From positions 1 through 64,000 of IMG/VR virus record IMGVR_UViG_3300028531_000001: a DNA stretch of 64,000 bases. One strand, written 5' to 3'. This DNA comes from a virus. Taxonomy: Duplodnaviria > Caudoviricetes. Made by a program: the position numbers and the translations under genes. Position 1 is the first letter of the stretch. Every line of letters starts with the position of its first letter. The notes beneath the pieces were generated by a model, which was not told where the DNA came from, searched no databases, and saw only the letters and a list, made by a program, of their open reading frames with translations. This document shows, one piece after another, positions 17,463 to 52,294 of the stretch.

Positions 17463-17810
17463 TCAGCGGGCCACGGACGAGGGGAACTCGACGACCGGGC
17501 CGCGTGGGGTCGCCCGGAGCGTCGCGACGTGGAGCGTGCCATCGTGGATCTCGTAGTGCCAGGTGTCGGGGGCATCGTCTCGGCCGTCGGGCAGGCTCTG
17601 CGCCGACCAGGCCAACGCCTTCTCCAATGTCAGGTCGGAGCCGATCAGGAGGGTGATCGAGTTGACCTCCCCCTGCTCCACCCCGAGCCGCGTGAACTGC
17701 CGGAACCGCCTGCCGGGGGCCAGCGGCCCGATCAGGTGGACCGCCCCGTGCTCGTAGGGGTCGGGCTCGGGCAGGTCCTCGCAGCGGACGACGAGCGGGA
17801 CTGGGAACAT
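17463..17810 (-). CDS. Hypothetical protein
   Basis: 115 aa, SD GAGGTGA, GC3 bias. Confidence 0.55.
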   Translation of the reverse strand: MFPVPLVVRCEDLPEPDPYEHGAVHLIGPLAPGRRFRQFTRLGVEQGEVNSITLLIGSDLTLEKALAWSAQSLPDGRDDAPDTWHYEIHDGTLHVATLRATPRGPVVEFPSSVAR

Positions 17811-17835: not shown

Positions 17836-18684
17836 TCATCTCAGGCTCAGGACGGCGGGCGACGGCTCGGGCCCCGCGGCGGGCTCGGCCCGGATCAGGT
17901 CGAGCACCGCGGCCTTCCAGCGGATCGGCTGGATCGGCGTCCCGTCGGAGTGGCGTTTGTTGAGGTCCACGTAGACCCCGAAGACCTTGCTGGCCGGCGT
18001 CATCTCCCAGTGCTTGCGGGGCTTGACCTGGAGCCCGGCGGAGGCGAGCCGGAGGTTGACGTCGCGGGGGCCGATCCCGCCGAGCATCGCGCCCAGTTCG
18101 GTCGGCGTGCACAACTTCTCGTTCTCGGGCGACGGCAGGGCGATGGCAAGCTGATCGAGGACGCTAACTCCCCTGCCCTTGCGGTATCCCTTGTCCGCGG
18201 CGAGCAACGCCTGGTTGCCCTCCAGGCCGCACATGCCGACGATCGCCAGGCAGGCGGCGAAGTCGGTCTGCATCGCGGCGTAGTTGACGCCGGCAGGCTG
18301 GACGGGCGGCAGCAGGCCGAAGTGGCGGGCCAGGGCGTCGCGGCACTCGACCTGGAAAAGCTCGAGTTTCGGGCGGATCTCCGGGCCGACCTTACCGACG
18401 TTGATGGTCGCCAGCCACATGGGGACGGAGTTCAGGTCGAGCAGGAATTGTTCCTGCACATGTCCTCTCTCGTCTGGTGTGGGCATAATGCCCATACGAG
18501 CCCACGAAGATGCCCTGAGCTTCTTGAGTTGGGTCGTCAGGTCGATCCCCAGGCTCTCGCAGATCCGGCGGACGGAGACGAGCACCTGCCCTTCCGGGGT
18601 GCGGATCGCTTGCAGTTGGTCGCCGTGGAACTCGATCGTCTCCAGGCGGTTGCGGTCGCTCGGTAGTACGGGGACGCTGGACAT
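17836..18684 (-). CDS. ant: Phage antirepressor (P22 Ant N-terminal domain)
   Basis: 'IEFHGDQL...VSVRRICESLGID...VPMWLATINVGKV.PEIRPKLELFQVEC'. Confidence 0.85.
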   Translation of the reverse strand: MSSVPVLPSDRNRLETIEFHGDQLQAIRTPEGQVLVSVRRICESLGIDLTTQLKKLRASSWARMGIMPTPDERGHVQEQFLLDLNSVPMWLATINVGKVGPEIRPKLELFQVECRDALARHFGLLPPVQPAGVNYAAMQTDFAACLAIVGMCGLEGNQALLAADKGYRKGRGVSVLDQLAIALPSPENEKLCTPTELGAMLGGIGPRDVNLRLASAGLQVKPRKHWEMTPASKVFGVYVDLNKRHSDGTPIQPIRWKAAVLDLIRAEPAAGPEPSPAVLSLR

Positions 18685-18728: not shown

Positions 18729-19220
18729 TCAGGCTTCGAAGACGTAGCAGGACTCTTCCGCCAGGCCGAACTCGAACGCCTCGCGGGCGTCGAACATCTC
18801 GATCAGGCGGTACTGCTCGTCGATCTCGTGATTGGCGATCTCGTCCAGCTCGGCCTCGACCTCGGCGCGGGCGTCCATCTCGGCGCGGAGGCGGACGAAC
18901 TCGGCCGGGGCCATCGCTTCGTCGGCGGCGAAGTCGGCGAGCACGTCGCCGCAAGCCGGGTCGGCCTGGATCGCCCGCAGGTGGCGGTGCAGTTCGGCCG
19001 ACTTCCGCGAGAGTTCGTTGGACCGAGCGAGAATCGCCTTGCGTGCGTCGAAGGCGGCATCGCTGTCGTCGCCCCAGGTGGCGTCAATCTGGTCCGAGAG
19101 GGAGAGTTGGATGAGGGCGATGTCGTCGATCCGGTCGAGGATCTCGATCGCGTCGGTGCCGTAGGAGGAGACGGGGATGGAGGCGTGGACGGACCGGGGG
19201 CGGGAGACTACCATGTTCAT
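18729..19220 (-). CDS. Hypothetical acidic helical protein, first gene of leftward operon A
   Basis: 163 aa, GC3 bias, downstream of a sigma70-like promoter. Confidence 0.65.
   Translation of the reverse strand: MNMVVSRPRSVHASIPVSSYGTDAIEILDRIDDIALIQLSLSDQIDATWGDDSDAAFDARKAILARSNELSRKSAELHRHLRAIQADPACGDVLADFAADEAMAPAEFVRLRAEMDARAEVEAELDEIANHEIDEQYRLIEMFDAREAFEFGLAEESCYVFEA
19186..19214 (+). promoter_or_regulatory. Predicted antisense sigma70-type promoter inside the first codons of 18729..19220
   Basis: TGGACG-17 nt-TACCAT. Confidence 0.5.
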
Positions 19221-19221
19221 C

Positions 19222-19300
19222 AGACCTGACCTCGTGCTAGCGGGGTTTGGTTCAGGCTCGGTCGGGAGGGCTCAATCTCCCGGCCGGGCCGTTTTCGTTT
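19222..19300 (+). ncRNA. Predicted cis-antisense sRNA A (two hairpins, terminator)
   Basis: Starts AGACCTG; hairpin 19255-19290 plus T-rich tail; homologous to 29669..29747. Confidence 0.55.
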
Positions 19301-19326
19301 GTCGCGTCTCTCGACCCGACAAGAGC

Positions 19327-19355
19327 ATATTAACTCTGGGTCTGTACTGAGTCAA
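19327..19355 (-). promoter_or_regulatory. Sigma70-type promoter of leftward operon A
   Basis: TTGACT-17 nt-TAATAT on the minus strand. Confidence 0.75.
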
Positions 19356-19468: not shown

Positions 19469-19678
19469 ATGGCTCCCGACAAACCTAAGAAATCAGTGAG
19501 CAAGCAGCCGACGGCAATCACGGTCAGGGGATCGAAGGAATGGCGCAGTTGGGTTGAGAAGATGGCAAAACACTGCATGACGGACACGTCGAAGCTCGTT
19601 GATGCAGCATTAGCGAGATATGGTAAGGAGCAGGGATTCGATGAGCCTCGACCTGACAGGCAAGGCGAGAACAGCTAA
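19469..19678 (+). CDS. Ribbon-helix-helix-like transcriptional regulator
   Basis: 'TAITVRGSKEWRSWVEKMAK...TSKLVDAALARY' beta-alpha-alpha pattern; divergent from operon A. Confidence 0.6.
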   Translation: MAPDKPKKSVSKQPTAITVRGSKEWRSWVEKMAKHCMTDTSKLVDAALARYGKEQGFDEPRPDRQGENS

Positions 19679-24468: not shown

Positions 24469-24862
24469 CTCCCCTGCCCTGCCCGGCCCTGGAAACACAG
24501 CCAGCCCGCCATCTCCAACGAGGGATGACGGGCTGGCATGGCTCACTTGCCCCGGCAGGGTCGAGACAAGCAATATAGGGCAGCTTTCAAGGCGTGGCGA
24601 CCAACGGACGGGTCCTGGAATCGCCTACTGGCGGTTCGCTGTTGGCCGCGAAGGCGTCCGGGAGGACTGGCTACCCCCGCGGGCACCATAAGAGGGATCG
24701 AACCGCATTCTAGCCAGCGTCGTTTCGCTGAGAGACCTGTGGCCTCGGCACAACCGTGCCCCATGTACGATGCGACCCCGGTGGGATCCTACTGACCAGA
24801 CTGGCCGGCGCTCAGATCCGACAATGCAATAATAGGTCGCTCACCACCGCAAGTCAACACGA

Positions 24863-25273
24863 CTACGACACTGAATCCGTCGAATCGTCCTCAATCGGGA
24901 TCAACTCCATCTTGACCGCCTTCCCATAGATCGCTGCGATCTTGTAGAGCGTATCGAGCGTCGGATTCAGGTGGCGGGCATTCTCCAGTTTGGAGATCGC
25001 CACGCGAGACACGCCCGACTTCTCGGCTGCCTGGTCGAGAGTCCAGCCATGCTCTTCCCTGGCGGTCTTGAGTTCAGACGCGACCTGCGTGATGAAGTAC
25101 CATTGCGGCTGGTACACCGTTCCGCCTTGGTCCTCAAAAAATCCCATCGCCCGTAGCCGCTCTTCGCTCGGCTGCTCCTTGTCGAGCCAGGCAATCTCGG
25201 CCCCTTCAGGCGTGTTGGGATCATAGTACGGATCGTATCCCGGTTCTCCCGGTTTTGGCGTTGGCTTGTCCAT
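24863..25273 (-). CDS. XRE-HTH antitoxin-like regulator
   Basis: 'LKTAREEHGWTLDQAAEKSGVSRVAISKLEN' HTH after an unstructured N-terminus; follows a toxin-like gene. Confidence 0.75.
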   Translation of the reverse strand: MDKPTPKPGEPGYDPYYDPNTPEGAEIAWLDKEQPSEERLRAMGFFEDQGGTVYQPQWYFITQVASELKTAREEHGWTLDQAAEKSGVSRVAISKLENARHLNPTLDTLYKIAAIYGKAVKMELIPIEDDSTDSVS

Positions 25274-25316
25274 ATCGGCTTCCCTTGTTCTCGGGTTGTG
25301 TGTCAGAATGAAAGAG

Positions 25317-25346
25317 GCTGGCCGGGGGTTGCAGCCCCCAGCCAGC
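25317..25346 (-). promoter_or_regulatory. Hairpin between the toxin and antitoxin genes
   Basis: GCTGGCTGGGGG-CTGCAA-CCCCCGGCCAGC then CTCTTTC on the minus strand. Confidence 0.6.
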
Positions 25347-25369
25347 GGTCAGGTTTGCGGCCCACCCCT

Positions 25370-25612
25370 CTAGACGAGGTAGGCTGTGATCACCCGGACC
25401 AGCTTAATCGGCTGGTGTCGTTTGACCCTGTAGACGACTAAGAACCGCTTTCCTTTGGCGGTCCACCCGAACCCGATCGGAAGTCCGCTTGATCGGCTTG
25501 CTTCCGGTTCGTGGTTCGGGTCGCTTATCACTCGCTCGCAGTCCTCCTTTGTGATTGGCCTGTGGGCGAAATGCCCCAGGTTCCATTCGTCCCACTCGAA
25601 CTCAATTTTCAA
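25370..25612 (-). CDS. BrnT/RelE-like toxin
   Basis: 'EFEWDEWNLGHF..RPITKEDCE' and 'FLVVY...VRVITAY'; TTG start with SD AAGGAGG. Confidence 0.7.
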   Translation of the reverse strand: MKIEFEWDEWNLGHFAHRPITKEDCERVISDPNHEPEASRSSGLPIGFGWTAKGKRFLVVYRVKRHQPIKLVRVITAYLV

Positions 25613-29053: not shown

Positions 29054-29668
29054 TCAGACCCGGCCCAATCGCAGTTCCAGTTCGTCTTCCAGCACGTCGC
29101 CCGGCATGCAATCCATCAGCCAGGCGTCTTCCTCGGCTTCGACCCGGGCCCAATACTCGGCCGCGGTCAGCGTGCGGCCTTCCAGGTACGCGAGGCGGTC
29201 TTCCTCGGACAGGCCCGGGCCATGCGAGGCGGCGGGCTTCCGGTGTGCGGCCTTGTTCCGCTCGAGTTTCCGGACGAACCCGCCGAGGAAATCGGCGAAC
29301 TCGGCGGCGGTCATGTCCCGCGTCAGTTTCGAGGGGCGATCGGCCGTCTCGGGCGAGTAGGCCAGGCCGGACAGGTCGAAGGCGGGGCCCATGTCCGAGA
29401 TACGGCCGAAGTGCGGGGCGGGGGCCTCGTGGGCGGCGTCGACCCGAAGGGCGGGGGAGGGCTCGACCTCGGTGGCTACCTCGACGGCCTCGGCCTGCTC
29501 GACCTCGGCGAAGTATTCCTCGATCCCGTGGCCGAAGTGGGGGAGGCGGTCCCGGTAGTTGCCGCCGTCGAACAGGACCTTCGAGGTGGAGGTGATCTGG
29601 CGGGCCGCGTGGATGGCTTCGGTGGAGGCGGACTTGACGCGGCCGGTGCGTGCGAAGATAGTGCTCAT
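29054..29668 (-). CDS. Hypothetical protein, first gene of leftward operon B
   Basis: 204 aa, GC3 bias, downstream of a consensus promoter. Confidence 0.7.
   Translation of the reverse strand: MSTIFARTGRVKSASTEAIHAARQITSTSKVLFDGGNYRDRLPHFGHGIEEYFAEVEQAEAVEVATEVEPSPALRVDAAHEAPAPHFGRISDMGPAFDLSGLAYSPETADRPSKLTRDMTAAEFADFLGGFVRKLERNKAAHRKPAASHGPGLSEEDRLAYLEGRTLTAAEYWARVEAEEDAWLMDCMPGDVLEDELELRLGRV
29634..29662 (+). promoter_or_regulatory. Predicted antisense sigma70-type promoter inside the first codons of 29054..29668
   Basis: TTGACG-17 nt-GATAGT. Confidence 0.55.
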
Positions 29669-29747
29669 AGACCTGCTCCCACTTATCCTGGGGGTCTGGT
29701 TCAGGCCCGGTTAGGAGTTGGCGCTCCTGGCCGGGCCGTTTGTTTTT
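29669..29747 (+). ncRNA. Predicted cis-antisense sRNA B (homolog of sRNA A)
   Basis: Starts AGACCTG; AGACC/GGTCT hairpin, then hairpin 29704-29737 plus TTTGTTTTT. Confidence 0.6.
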
Positions 29748-29772
29748 GAGGGCTTTCGCTCTCGACAATCAG

Positions 29773-29801
29773 ATAGTACGCCGCATTTCTGGTGATGTCA
29801 A
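29773..29801 (-). promoter_or_regulatory. Sigma70-type promoter of leftward operon B
   Basis: TTGACA-17 nt-TACTAT on the minus strand. Confidence 0.8.
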
Positions 29802-29928: not shown

Positions 29929-30153
29929 TTGAGGCTTCAAGTGAAAAAGGGTAGGGGGCGACCGAAGAAACCGACAGGCGAAGGCATTCAGGTCCGGATC
30001 GACTCCGACCTTGTCAGGAAGGCTAAGTTCTTAGCTGCCCTAGAGAACATGGAGCCTGCCGCCTACATTAGTCATCTCTTAAGGCCGGCCGTAGAGCAGG
30101 CATTCAAAAAGGCCGGCAGGGAATTTATCGAGGACGCCCAACCAGAGGAGTAA
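29929..30153 (+). CDS. RHH-like regulator with AT-hook-like KKGRGRPKK (start 29929 TTG or 29941 GTG)
   Basis: 'IQVRIDSDLVRKAKFLAALE...ISHLLRPAV' pattern; divergent from operon B. Confidence 0.6.
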   Translation: MRLQVKKGRGRPKKPTGEGIQVRIDSDLVRKAKFLAALENMEPAAYISHLLRPAVEQAFKKAGREFIEDAQPEE

Positions 30154-30265
30154 TTTGCAACTTGCAAATAACCCCGGAACCATCCGCCTCGTTCAGTCTT
30201 TTGCAAGTTGCAAATAACCACCGCCGGGCCTGACCGGCACAGCCCTCTTTTGCAAGTTGCAAATA
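30153..30265. repeat. Three parS-like 15-bp palindromes TTTGCAA(C/G)TTGCAAA
   Basis: Copies at 30154, 30200 and 30249, each followed by TA, directly upstream of parA. Confidence 0.85.
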
Positions 30266-30343
30266 GGCCGAGTCGACTCCAGACGCCAGCGACCAACCGC
30301 CGATCCTCTCTAATGCCCCAATGACGGGGCAGGGGAGGATCGC

Positions 30344-31135
30344 ATGCGTTCGATCGTGCTGCTGAATCAGAAGGGCGGGGTCGGCAAGACCTCGACCTGC
30401 CACCATCTCGCGGGGACGCTGGCCAAGCGGGGCCGGCGCGTCCTCTGCCTGGACGTCGATCCCCAGGCCAGCCTGACGCAGGGCTTCTTCGGGCCCGAGT
30501 GGACCCGGTCGCTCGACCCGTCGCGGTCGATCGCGGCGTACTACACCGAGGAAGGATTCGACCCGTCGATCCCGATGGCGGTCGAGACGCCGGTGCAGGG
30601 GGTCTCCATCATCCCCGGCTCGGCCCGCCTGAACTCGTTCAACCTGCCGGACCCCGAGGGCGACCACCGGCAGTTCGTCCTGCGCGAGGCCCTGGCGGAC
30701 CTGGAAGGCCAGTACGACGACGTGCTGATCGACTGCCCGCCCAATCTCTGCTTGTGCTCGTGGTCGGCCCTGGCGGCGGCGGACGGGGTCATCGTTCCGC
30801 TCCAGGCCGAGGACTACGGCGCGCAAGGGATTTTCGCGATCACCGGCGCGATCGAGGCCGCCCGCCAGCAGGTCAACGCCTCGCTGGAGCTCTACGGCTT
30901 CCTGATCACGATGTACAACAAGGCCCTGTCGATCCACGTCGCCTACGCGAGCCAGCTCCGCGACCTCTACGGGGCGAAGGTCTTCGCCACCGAGATCCCG
31001 CTGGCCAAGGACTTCAAGGAGGCCGTCGCCAGCCGCCTGCCGATCTCGCACTACAAGCCGAAGTCCGCACCGGCCAGGACGCTGGCAGCCCTGGCCGCGG
31101 AGCTCGACGCGCTGACCATGACGGAGGCCGCGTGA
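30344..31135 (+). CDS. parA: ParA family partition ATPase
   Basis: Deviant Walker A KGGVGKTS, DVDPQASLT, LIDCPP. Confidence 0.95.
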   Translation: MRSIVLLNQKGGVGKTSTCHHLAGTLAKRGRRVLCLDVDPQASLTQGFFGPEWTRSLDPSRSIAAYYTEEGFDPSIPMAVETPVQGVSIIPGSARLNSFNLPDPEGDHRQFVLREALADLEGQYDDVLIDCPPNLCLCSWSALAAADGVIVPLQAEDYGAQGIFAITGAIEAARQQVNASLELYGFLITMYNKALSIHVAYASQLRDLYGAKVFATEIPLAKDFKEAVASRLPISHYKPKSAPARTLAALAAELDALTMTEAA

Positions 31136-32040: not shown

Positions 32041-32701
32041 CCATAGGGCCCCACTTCGACCGGTCGACCGCCGCGTCCTCGGGCGGCAACCCCGCCAGCG
32101 ACCTCCACAGCCCCCGCATCGGGTGTCCCGGCGGGTACTCCGCCAGCTTCGCCAGGGCCTCGGCCTTCTCCGCCTCGGGCATGGCGACCGACGCGGGCTC
32201 GGGCGGGGCCTGCGGTCCGGGGGGCTTCGCTTCCGTCTCCCCCCGGACCGGCCCGGGGCTCCCCAAGCCCACGGGGCCGGTTTCTCCTTTTCTCTTCCCT
32301 TGTGGATCTAATTCGGGTGCGAGCGATTTCACCCCGGGGGATGACGCCGATTTCACCCGGGGCGTGTCAGGAATTTCACCCCCCCTCCAAATGAGATAGA
32401 TCAGCCGGCCGCTGGCGAAACGGCCCGAGGCGTCGTCCTCGCGGCGGATGTGCCCGGCCTTCTCGAGCCGCGAGAGGCTCGACTGGATCGTCCGCTCGGA
32501 GCACCGGCCCATGCCGGCCAGGGTGCGGTTTCCCATCGAGGCCCAGTCCTTCGACCGGGCAAATCGGAGGATCGACGCCAGCGTCTGGATGTCCCGGGCC
32601 TTCAGCCTCGGGTCGTCCTGGACGTGATGGGGGACCGCCGAGAAGAACGGCACTTTCGGCTTGCTTCGCGCGGTCGGGCGCGTACAATCGACGTAGCTCA
32701 T
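31904..32701 (-). CDS. Winged-HTH plasmid-type replication initiator (putative); 3' end overlaps parB
   Basis: 'FSAVPHHVQDDPRLKARD...RTLAGMGRCSERTIQSSLSRLEKAGHIRR' HTH_36-like. Confidence 0.65.
   Translation of the reverse strand: MSYVDCTRPTARSKPKVPFFSAVPHHVQDDPRLKARDIQTLASILRFARSKDWASMGNRTLAGMGRCSERTIQSSLSRLEKAGHIRREDDASGRFASGRLIYLIWRGGEIPDTPRVKSASSPGVKSLAPELDPQGKRKGETGPVGLGSPGPVRGETEAKPPGPQAPPEPASVAMPEAEKAEALAKLAEYPPGHPMRGLWRSLAGLPPEDAAVDRSKWGPMVSRPTASGPSPGPSGTSSRPRSLPGEMPPPDLRRLGSIGRMPWKS
32325..32383. repeat. Three iteron-like ATTTCACCC repeats inside rep
   Basis: Copies at 32326, 32350 and 32373 (period 23-24). Confidence 0.6.
32661..32688 (+). promoter_or_regulatory. Predicted countertranscript promoter inside the 5' end of rep
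   Basis: TTGCTT-16 nt-TACAAT. Confidence 0.55.
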
Positions 32702-32805
32702 TGGGCCTGATTCCCGTTGAGTGCCACGCTCAGGCGGTGCGGGCAAGCACCGACCCCGAGCAAATCAATGCCCCGCGGACGCTGCAAACGTTCGCGGGGT
32801 TTTTT
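32695..32805 (+). ncRNA. Predicted countertranscribed RNA antisense to the rep leader
   Basis: Ends in CCCCGCGGACG-CTGCAAA-CGTTCGCGGGG-T6 (32771-32805). Confidence 0.55.
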
Positions 32806-33042
32806 CGTACCCTCATATCTATCGCGCCCGGTCTCAATTGGCAAGCTCCAGTAATACTGGAATCTCCGCCGACCGATGCGCGGTAATACCGAGGTCCCGA
32901 ATCCTATCCCGTAAACGCAAGGCTGCCGCGGCCTCCGCCGCTCGGTGCATGCGTTCAGTTTACTCGATCAGGCCGGCCGATCAAGGCCGATGATCCATTT
33001 TCTCACCTACAGTCTCAATTGCGACAATTCTGCATTTCCGCC

Positions 33043-51073: not shown

Positions 51074-52294
51074 GTGGCTTATCGCTGGGGGAAGATCAAC
51101 GACGGGGATCCATTCCACCGGATCACCAAGGACCTGCTCAGGCCGCTCCTGACGGCCGACCTAGGCAAATACGACGGGTGCCTGATCGCCAGCCTGATCG
51201 ACGAGAGTTGGACGAAGCCCTACGTGGAGTCGAAGCGGCGGCCGAATGCGGAGGTCGAACCCGTCCCATTCCGGGTGCCGTGCAGCCAGATCGCCCGCGA
51301 CTTCGGCTGCCCCAAGCAGCGGATCAGCAAGGCGAAGCGGACCCTGATCGCCCGCAGGATCATGATCGAATTGCCCGACGGGACGGTCCTCTTCAACAAG
51401 AATGTCGACGACTGGATCGGCCTGGACGGCCAGCCCCAGTTCACCGAAGGGCAACTCCAATTGTTTATACGGGATGGGATGGCATCGTCGAAGAAAACCA
51501 AGACGACACACAACTGTGTGACGAAAAAGGGGCGGTCGAAGCCAAACGACACACTCCAGGGTGACGAAACCGGGAAATCGGGCGGCCCCGACACACAACT
51601 GTGTGACGTTCTGCATGCCAGCGAGAATCCCGTATCCGGCGACACACAACTGTGTGACGCTCGACCGGAAAACGACACACAACTGTGTGACGCAACGACA
51701 CACTCGGCTGTGTCGTCCCACTATATAGGAACGCGCCCGTCAGAAGACTCAGAAGACTTCAATACAAGAGGTGCTACGCACCAATTCGCGGGCGGGCGCG
51801 ATGCCGGCGGCGGGGAGACCATCGGGGAGGGGCCGAGGAAGGTGCCCGACTTCCCCGCGGTGCTGCCCAGGCCGACCGACGTCCACCCCGGCCCACACGA
51901 GCCGGACTGGGAGCGGGTCGACTTCGCCCGGGGCCTGGCGATGAAGCTCTGGATCAACGACCGGCTGGGGCTGGACATCCGGGCCCACGCCCGCCAGTGG
52001 CCGAGCGAGTGGTTCGTGAGGGTCGTCAAGCGGCTCTGGGCCCAGCAGGCGTACCCGCACAGCTTCAAACTCCTGCGGACCATCCTGAACGGCTGGGACC
52101 GCAAGGGCGGGCCCGACGCGGGGCCGGAGGACGACTACGACGACAGGCTCGAGTTCATCCCGCAGTCGAAGCGGGGAGTCCTGCCCCTGTCCAAGCCGGG
52201 ACCCAGGCCGACTTCGGATGACAAATCCCTGAATGAGTTCATCCCCATATCCAAACGATTCGCCCAAGCCCAGGCCAACGGGAGCCCACTGTGA
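51074..52294 (+). CDS. Phage replication initiator (lambda O-like) with internal origin
   Basis: wHTH 'SQIARDFGCPKQRISKAKRTLIARRIM...FNKNVDDW'; iterons in the linker; directly upstream of dnaB. Confidence 0.75.
   Translation: MAYRWGKINDGDPFHRITKDLLRPLLTADLGKYDGCLIASLIDESWTKPYVESKRRPNAEVEPVPFRVPCSQIARDFGCPKQRISKAKRTLIARRIMIELPDGTVLFNKNVDDWIGLDGQPQFTEGQLQLFIRDGMASSKKTKTTHNCVTKKGRSKPNDTLQGDETGKSGGPDTQLCDVLHASENPVSGDTQLCDARPENDTQLCDATTHSAVSSHYIGTRPSEDSEDFNTRGATHQFAGGRDAGGGETIGEGPRKVPDFPAVLPRPTDVHPGPHEPDWERVDFARGLAMKLWINDRLGLDIRAHARQWPSEWFVRVVKRLWAQQAYPHSFKLLRTILNGWDRKGGPDAGPEDDYDDRLEFIPQSKRGVLPLSKPGPRPTSDDKSLNEFIPISKRFAQAQANGSPL
51505..51714. repeat. Origin iterons: four exact 19-mers GACACACAACTGTGTGACG plus two degenerate copies
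   Basis: Exact at 51505, 51590, 51641, 51674; degenerate at 51548, 51697. Confidence 0.92.

Follow-up and report, generated by a model that had tools for sequence, protein, structure and literature searches.

A predicted antisense RNA opposing the antirepressor operon of a probable planctomycete phage, and its relatives in Isosphaeraceae

Introduction

In IS10/Tn10, RNA-OUT is a stable stem-loop of about 70 nt, transcribed from a promoter within the 5' part of the target gene. It is complementary to the 5' end of RNA-IN with its ribosome-binding site; the overlap takes in the start codon and the beginning of the mRNA, which has a short sense leader. In pMV158 the ribbon-helix-helix (RHH) protein CopG is encoded by the first gene of the controlled operon, and the antisense RNAII targets the start of the downstream repB. 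The c4 RNA of phages P1 and P7 is a small RNA (sRNA) cut from the sense transcript, which pairs through short boxes, acts in trans and limits antirepressor synthesis by occlusion of a ribosome-binding site, and in phage P22 the sar RNA lies between arc and ant and targets the start region of ant itself. The immI region of P22, as presented in PMC2629481 (with Liao et al. 1987 and Wu et al. 1987 cited there), comprises the RHH repressors Mnt and Arc, the promoter Pant and the sar antisense RNA controlling ant. The present work concerns a similar arrangement at positions 19222-19300 of the first 64 kb (hereafter the window; 60-70% G+C) of the 76.9-kb IMG/VR virus record IMGVR_UViG_3300028531_000001, in front of an antirepressor operon whose first gene encodes a 163-aa protein.

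On the basis of sequence comparison we estimate at about 0.8 the probability that this region encodes a cis-antisense sRNA of some 75-80 nt which occludes the ribosome-binding site of the 163-aa gene, within a two-layer control of the operon. The comparisons strongly support a new RNA family, absent from Rfam 15, whose kind of regulation is already known. Regulatory RNAs are almost uncharted in Planctomycetota: a review table gives 8 annotated sRNAs for the whole PVC group (PMC9029176), and a literature search on planctomycete antisense RNAs in prophages gave no description of such an RNA.

Promoters and predicted RNA at the antirepressor operon

The elements at the start of the operon are the following.

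18729..19220, minus strand: first operon gene, 163 aa, ATG at 19220..19218; direct target of the predicted antisense RNA
19355..19350 (TTGACT) and 19332..19327 (TAATAT), minus strand: sense promoter TTGACT-17-TAATAT, 9/12 in the promoter scan
19221..19320, minus strand: leader of the sense mRNA, with a length of about 99 nt; a hairpin at its 5' end (19299-19322) precedes the part complementary to the antisense RNA
19186..19191, plus strand: antisense -35 TGGACG, on codons 10-12 (S-V-H) of the 163-aa gene
19209..19214, plus strand: antisense -10 TACCAT, separated from the -35 by a 17-nt spacer and ending 3 nt before the start-codon complement (19218-19220)
19222..19300, plus strand: predicted antisense RNA, about 79 nt; hairpin 1 (19223-19252), terminator hairpin (19255-19290), U-rich tail

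A preliminary description of the locus, made from its letters, had proposed a leftward promoter with a leader of about 100 nt, opposed by a promoter inside codons of the first gene. Both are present, the leader being estimated here at 99 nt and the opposing promoter lying at 19186-19214, embedded in codons 3-12. The proposed start of the RNA just outside the ATG also agrees with our reading, in which AGACCTG (AGACCUG in the RNA) begins at 19222, 1-2 bases past the ATG complement and about 7 nt past the -10. The AGACC/GGTTT fold, the hairpin at 19255-19290 and the T-rich tail were recovered as well, with a terminator stem counted as 15 bp here and as 14 bp before.

Hairpin 1 consists of an outer GACC/GGUU stem enclosing an 8-bp stem and carries an anti-Shine-Dalgarno CCUC in its 5' arm. 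The terminator stem is GC-rich and is followed by the tail GTTTTCGTTT (also given as GUUUUCGUUU), which is U-rich on the plus strand only. The Shine-Dalgarno sequence (SD) of the 163-aa gene, GAGG at 19233..19230 on the minus strand with a 9-nt spacer to the ATG, falls within the span of the predicted RNA; complementarity is full over the SD region and most of the 99-nt leader, and about 20 nt remain between the 3' end and the point where sense transcription starts. The plus-strand fold of 19222-19300 has -48.5 kcal/mol (z = -6.6, 0/200 shuffles as stable), and the reverse strand gives z = -1.7. Promoter-like sites scoring at least 8/12 occur in the window at 5.3e-4 per nt per strand, and at this rate the chance that one falls in the 11 nt around the start-codon complement is low (P of about 0.006).

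Covariation and strand of the fold

Covariance model R1 was built from four sequences, namely the locus above (copy A), a paralogous copy B in the same phage (29669-29747) and two metagenomic relatives. It recovered diverged loci together with new ones from Isosphaeraceae, and model R2, made subsequently, gave a 48-sequence alignment. Copy A scores 94 bits with R1 and 79.7 bits with R2.

In 12 diverged instances the fold of the antisense strand showed z values of -4.1 to -6.7, with 61 G-U pairs against 12 on the complement, and in nine of the 12 the antisense strand was the more stable by about 7-24 kcal/mol. A 13-sequence alignment had 95.8% of its cells paired compared with 69.6% in shuffles, and compensatory changes at 22 of 25 pairs. 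For the 48 sequences the values were 96.5% and 68.6%, with 24 of 25 pairs compensatory; changes of this kind were found at all 10 pairs of hairpin 1. Double-change cells numbered 280 against 82 +/- 8, none of 500 shuffles reached the observed values, and registers slid along the alignment paired in at most 52% of cells.

The same 48 members contain 188 G-U cells and 10 A-C cells in their stems, and pairing amounts to 96.5% on the antisense strand versus 80.7% on the mRNA strand, which places the folded molecule on the antisense strand. A simple case is given by the terminator stems of copy A and its relative L006, which differ by two transitions swapping U-G and C-G, so that pairing is kept on the plus strand alone. 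The consensus of the U-rich tail in the 48 members is TTTtcgTTT.

A further observation concerns the apex of the terminator hairpin in alignment A7, where many members keep GUGUUnnCAGCAC (often GUGUUACCAGCAC) while the stems below vary freely. The complementary mRNA loop, predicted as CUGGUAA, would hold the YUNR-type CUGG. This apex, which is not kept in copies A and B, may be a kissing-loop start site.

Antisense promoter and target genes

The conservation of the antisense promoter is independent evidence, because the promoter region lies outside the covariance model. When 45 instances were aligned on the start-codon complement, columns -32 to -27 gave T32 T23 G33 A29 C31 G31 (TTGACG) and, after a 17-nt spacer, columns -9 to -4 gave T19 A35 n n n T36 (TAnnnT), with an end 3 nt short of CAT; among the first 12 instances the -10 ends exactly there in eight. 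The -10 hexamers themselves differ (TACCAT, GATAGT, TAAAGT, TAGCAT, GAGAAT, AAGAAT, TAGAAT), and such variation fits selection for function rather than recent common descent. The positions of the -10 coincide with synonymous sites. At codon 4 the G+C of third codon positions is 0.40 versus 0.85 in gene bodies (P = 1e-11), codons 5, 7 and 8 being normal, and Val-11, in the core of the -35, is encoded by GTC in 21 of 23 cases versus 62% in gene bodies (P = 0.002).

The 31 top genome hits all start with CAT or CAC, and in 30 of them this is the complement of the start codon of an opposite-strand open reading frame (ORF) of at least 77 aa. The genes so opposed are diverse, since 43 first-gene products fell into 22 sequence clusters, mostly unrelated. 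Pfam and PHROGs searches with the first genes of about 20 cassettes returned one tyrosine integrase, one weak SWIM match and no other family. An anti-SD sequence (CUCC or UCCU) occurs within the RNA, in the 5' arm or loop of hairpin 1, in every instance read. Of the 45 instances, 36 have a sense promoter that scores 8/12 or better, many reaching 10-11/12, and the median leader is 97 nt, most lying between 91 and 105 nt.

It was also observed that otherwise unrelated proteins at the 45 target loci share the N-terminal pattern M-[TSA]-[TI]-[LIV]-[FL]-[AD]-[SR]-A-A-P-V-K. Because this pattern mirrors the -10 (codons 3-4) and the -35 (codons 10-12), a non-coding constraint appears to be written into the protein.

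Distribution and layout of the family

R2 found 115 matches in 58 of 121 Isosphaeraceae genomes, with up to 7 in one genome; several of them are on multi-megabase contigs. Across the class, matches occurred in 40 of 151 sampled genomes with weaker scores outside Isosphaeraceae, where the full layout was present in 4 of 11 hits inspected; the class-level hits L116, L117, L120 and L123 look like unrelated terminators and were rejected. The suggestion of an antisense RNA gene of about 80 nt is strongly supported by a covarying antisense-strand structure, a promoter in fixed register outside the model and this number of matches. That it might found a new family is in line with Rfam 15, whose families all stayed below their gathering scores, both in the window and in 20 related loci, nothing relevant appearing at E up to 10 around the site.

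The 163-aa protein found no relative in viral contigs; DNA-pattern scans of viral contigs gave none in the first and two chance matches to coding sequence (L004, L005) in the second, and a scan of metagenome contigs gave 56 matches, each of them either a chance terminator or coding sequence. The 163-aa protein has two homologues that carry the same leader, L006 (94% identity) and L007 (67%). Homologues of the divergent 69-aa regulator described below led to loci of very different sequence with the same intergenic layout, in the order start-codon complement, anti-SD hairpin, GC hairpin with U tract, small third hairpin ending in CGACA, sense -10/-35 and regulator gene. The sense -10/-35 of family loci is often spanned by an inverted repeat, for example TCTGTACCA-N11-TGGTACAGA. 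Five loci with an RHH homologue and a different upstream arrangement (L072, L074, L075, L077, L078) were excluded from the RNA analysis. The loci of regulator homologues are taken to be mobile elements because they carry integrases, a resolvase, excisionase-like HTH_17 genes and primase-polymerases.

One metagenomic element, L068, holds two cassettes, at L068:4492-4567 (minus strand) and L068:2242-2319 (plus strand). Hairpin 1 is missing from the second, which leaves the RNA with an unstructured 5' tail that matches, as its complement, the SD and the GTG of a 113-aa gene. This cassette has a good antisense promoter, TTGCCC-17-TAAAAT.

Operon, divergent regulator and host

The remaining elements of the operon and its divergent neighbour are listed here.

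17836..18684, minus strand: antirepressor gene, 282 aa, P22_AR_N domain; own SD GGAG, 45 nt after the 163-aa gene
17463..17810, minus strand: third operon gene, 115 aa, no assigned function; same gene order in the relative L006
17042..17013, minus strand: operon-end terminator, after the 115-aa gene
19469..19678, plus strand: 69-aa RHH-like gene, divergent from the antirepressor operon; presumed repressor of the sense promoter

The designation of an antirepressor operon, already made in the preliminary description, is secured by the 282-aa product, which matches P22_AR_N (Pfam, 9.4e-27) and PHROG 524, 'anti-repressor Ant' (3e-26). The 163-aa first gene has no Pfam or PHROG family. An antirepressor inside the controlled operon is found in copy A and L006, and most other family members control other, unassigned genes.

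The 69-aa protein is probably an RHH protein, as judged from its model. No Pfam hit rose above threshold and the best PDB profile match was CopG at E = 1.7; the AlphaFold model (predicted local distance difference test, pLDDT, 71.7) shows two helices following a basic N-terminal stretch, and the top Foldseek ranks were CopG, Arc, ParD and omega, all non-significant (E at or above 0.8). Of the 31 top RNA hits, 11 have a member of this regulator family downstream. The other hits, like copy B, presumably use different repressors.

The window contains tail-like genes, ParA, the P22-type antirepressor, a PEP-CTERM protein and a protein with a prepilin N-terminal methylation motif (N_methyl). Relatives of the 69-aa regulator were found in Isosphaeraceae and in other Planctomycetales metagenome-assembled genomes, and since the RNA family is also common in Isosphaeraceae, the host of the phage is almost certainly an Isosphaeraceae planctomycete.

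Second copy and other candidates in the window

Copy B has the same design as copy A.

29634..29801, RNA on the plus strand and sense promoter on the minus strand: copy B module, antisense promoter TTGACG-17-GATAGT, sense promoter TTGACA-17-TACTAT
29669-29747, plus strand: predicted RNA of copy B, starting AGACCUG adjoining the start codon, terminator 29704-29737; 66.8 bits

Identity between the two copies is highest over the predicted RNA and declines on both flanks. By BLASTP, the 163-aa and 204-aa first gene products of copies A and B are not homologous, nor are the products of their two RHH-like divergent genes; the duplication or exchange therefore concerned the regulatory piece with the first dozen codons.

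A candidate third copy at 25303-25391 (minus strand, 16.6-18.2 bits) was rejected, because it is a terminator that separates two minus-strand genes and does not adjoin the start of either. The genes of the interval 24863-25612 (minus strand) encode an 80-aa product beginning MKIEFEWDEW and then a 136-aa product with a helix-turn-helix-like C-terminus, with a hairpin between them (25346..25317), a putative toxin-antitoxin pair resembling the BrnT/BrnA type. Next to it, 24469-24862 (minus strand) comprises about 390 nt without a convincing ORF and has a near-consensus leftward promoter, TTGACT-17-TATTAT (24857..24829), whose context CCGACAA-(-10)-(-35) resembles that of the cassette sense promoters; it may be a non-coding RNA gene.

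At 32661-32812 (plus strand) a third countertranscript-like design was noted, with TTGCTT-16-TACAAT embedded in the first codons of a gene that begins at 32701 on the minus strand; the next 110 nt or so end in an 11-bp hairpin with T6. Its match to the family model is weak (13.8 bits, E = 0.15), and it may be a distant or an independent analogue of the family.

Two repeat arrays were also seen. One, at 30149-30268 between the copy B RHH-like gene and the gene of a ParA ATPase (30344-31135), consists of three units of about 20 nt, 46-49 nt apart and each with the palindrome TTTGCAAGTTGCAAA; it looks like the partition site or operator set of a plasmid-like prophage. At 51500-51695, five copies of a 27-nt unit with the palindrome ACGACACACAACTGTGTGACG, 33-51 nt apart, look like an iteron or operator array.

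Proposed mechanism and alternative explanations

Given the sequence elements, conservation, covariation, strand bias and genomic context observed at these loci, the following course of events may be proposed. A sigma-70-type promoter inside codons 3-12 would produce a rightward RNA that starts a few bases from the start codon and ends at the intrinsic terminator. By pairing with the leader this RNA would most likely block 30S binding at the first gene, and the leader duplex of about 80 bp would probably be open to double-strand RNases, so that the output of the whole operon, antirepressor included, would fall. Silencing of the operon is the most likely outcome in view of the complementarity to the SD region. 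The divergent RHH-like protein, shutting the sense promoter, would form one of two layers of control and the antisense RNA the other. The module of repressor gene, operator and promoter, leader, antisense RNA and first 12 or so codons recurs before unrelated genes in planctomycete prophages and other integrative elements.

Several points weigh against this proposal. The antisense promoter of copy A reaches only 8/12 (TGGACG, TACCAT), and the sigma-70 consensus is an assumption for Planctomycetota. AT-richer early codons are common at many gene starts for reasons of translation initiation, and the largest first-gene cluster has the common N-terminal peptide MTT[IL]FDSAxPVK, which is possibly conserved for protein reasons. 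Because alignments A6 and A7 are fits to the model, their paired percentages are inflated and G-U is favoured over A-C, and the relatedness of the sequences makes the shuffle controls overstate significance. At L079:390-470, finally, the operator palindrome and sense promoter are kept with a leader of about 45 nt, a 6-bp hairpin and no recognisable antisense promoter; the RNA is therefore dispensable in some contexts. Generous as the numbers are, the direction and size of the strand asymmetry seem hard to explain otherwise than by an antisense-strand RNA as the folded molecule.

It is unlikely that the RNA is made and acts mainly in another manner, through promoter collision in cis, through trans cross-immunity or coordination between copies, or as a positive leader element that stabilises or remodels. 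Because the sense and antisense promoters face each other about 100 bp apart, as they do in nearly all family members, transcriptional interference is possible; moreover, a genome may hold up to 7 copies, and copies A and B have blocks of 7, 10 and 13 nt exactly in common, with cross-duplexes predicted at -100 to -110 kcal/mol versus about -185 kcal/mol for the cognate ones. These common blocks lie mostly within stems, however, and the presence of an anti-SD inside the RNA in every instance read points to translational control, to which trans action and promoter interference are possible additions. Still another view, which we regard as quite improbable, dispenses with the antisense gene: the hairpin and T tract would merely stop stray rightward transcription from reaching the repressor promoter, and the hexamers would be a by-product of the N-terminal peptide. 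The hairpin is indeed a good intrinsic terminator, many first genes share M-[TS]-[TI]-[LI]-F-D-S-A-x-P-V-K, and the hexamers of copy A score only 8/12. Yet hairpin 1, superfluous for a terminator, covaries equally at every pair, the promoter geometry (17-nt spacer, invariant-type A and T) is kept in otherwise unrelated first genes, and the rare AT-ending codons fall exactly on the -10 positions and not on codons 5, 7 and 8; without the promoter there would also be no obvious source of rightward transcripts, because the upstream genes are all leftward.

We consider it very improbable that the conserved structure has its function in the leader of the sense mRNA, for instance in translation or stability, or that it serves in the DNA as a palindromic site for a protein. 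Such a role would be compatible with the conserved leader length of about 97 nt, with the small hairpin of its own at the start of the leader, and with the fact that DNA hairpins form on both strands. The excess of G-U over A-C cells would, however, leave about 17% of stem cells mismatched in an mRNA or a symmetric DNA site, the mRNA-strand fold of copy A is far weaker (z = -1.7 vs -6.6), the U tract is confined to the antisense side, and the operator-like inverted repeats are located elsewhere, across the sense -35. A cis-antisense RNA over the ribosome-binding site is the reading that we prefer.

It is tempting to speculate further, in a tentative way, that the unit of evolution is not the RNA alone. 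It may instead be a portable switch cassette, comprising the repressor gene, operator, sense promoter, leader of about 97 nt, antisense RNA gene and first 12 or so codons, which planctomycete mobile elements graft before unrelated genes, the RNAs perhaps serving as a trans immunity or coordination code among co-resident elements. If this is true, a promoter-shaped N-terminal peptide (M-T-T-[IL]-...-V-K) has been imposed on otherwise unrelated proteins.

R2 provides a covariance model for a family with strong covariation, more than 100 members and a testable target rule, namely that each copy opposes the gene whose first codons hold its promoter. The family marks the places where prophages and integrative elements of Isosphaeraceae and related families have their control switches, and could help in locating such elements and their unannotated early genes. 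It also suggests that a non-coding constraint can shape codon choice, and probably amino-acid sequence, at protein N-termini.

Comparison with known systems

P1 c4 and P22 sar had been put forward as analogues in the preliminary description, and the comparison holds for sar, which is close in logic. c4 resembles the proposed RNA in limiting antirepressor synthesis by occlusion of a ribosome-binding site, but as a model it is poor: it arises by processing of the sense transcript and works in trans, whereas the RNA described here is encoded opposite to its target, has a promoter and a terminator of its own and gives no match to C4 of Rfam. It is closer to sar, IS10 RNA-OUT and pMV158 RNAII.

With IS10 RNA-OUT it has in common the antisense promoter in the 5' end of the target gene, a stable stem-loop structure complementary to the 5' region of the target mRNA with the ribosome-binding site, the face-to-face promoters and the location on a mobile element, so that copy number matters; it differs in an overlap that takes in the whole leader of about 80 nt and stops at the start codon, in two hairpins versus one and in the coupling to a protein repressor. 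pMV158 likewise combines in one operon an RHH repressor at the promoter and a short, terminator-ended antisense RNA over a ribosome-binding site, although in the present operon the presumed repressor gene is divergent and it is the first gene that the RNA would target.

The resemblance to P22 immI extends to an antirepressor operon, a divergent, here probable, RHH-type repressor, a short hairpin-rich antisense RNA over the ribosome-binding site, convergent sense and antisense promoters, and a moron-like unit in a temperate phage. Unlike sar, the RNA covers the leader of the first, 163-aa gene, and ant has a separate SD 45 nt past that gene; there is no Arc-like first gene, and the host belongs to Planctomycetota rather than to the Enterobacteria of P22. 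No similarity to sar was found in sequence or through Rfam, and because no Rfam family matches, the RNA is regarded as not homologous to sar or c4 and looks convergent. The antirepressor operon of this planctomycete phage would then stand under two layers of control, as in P22 immI.

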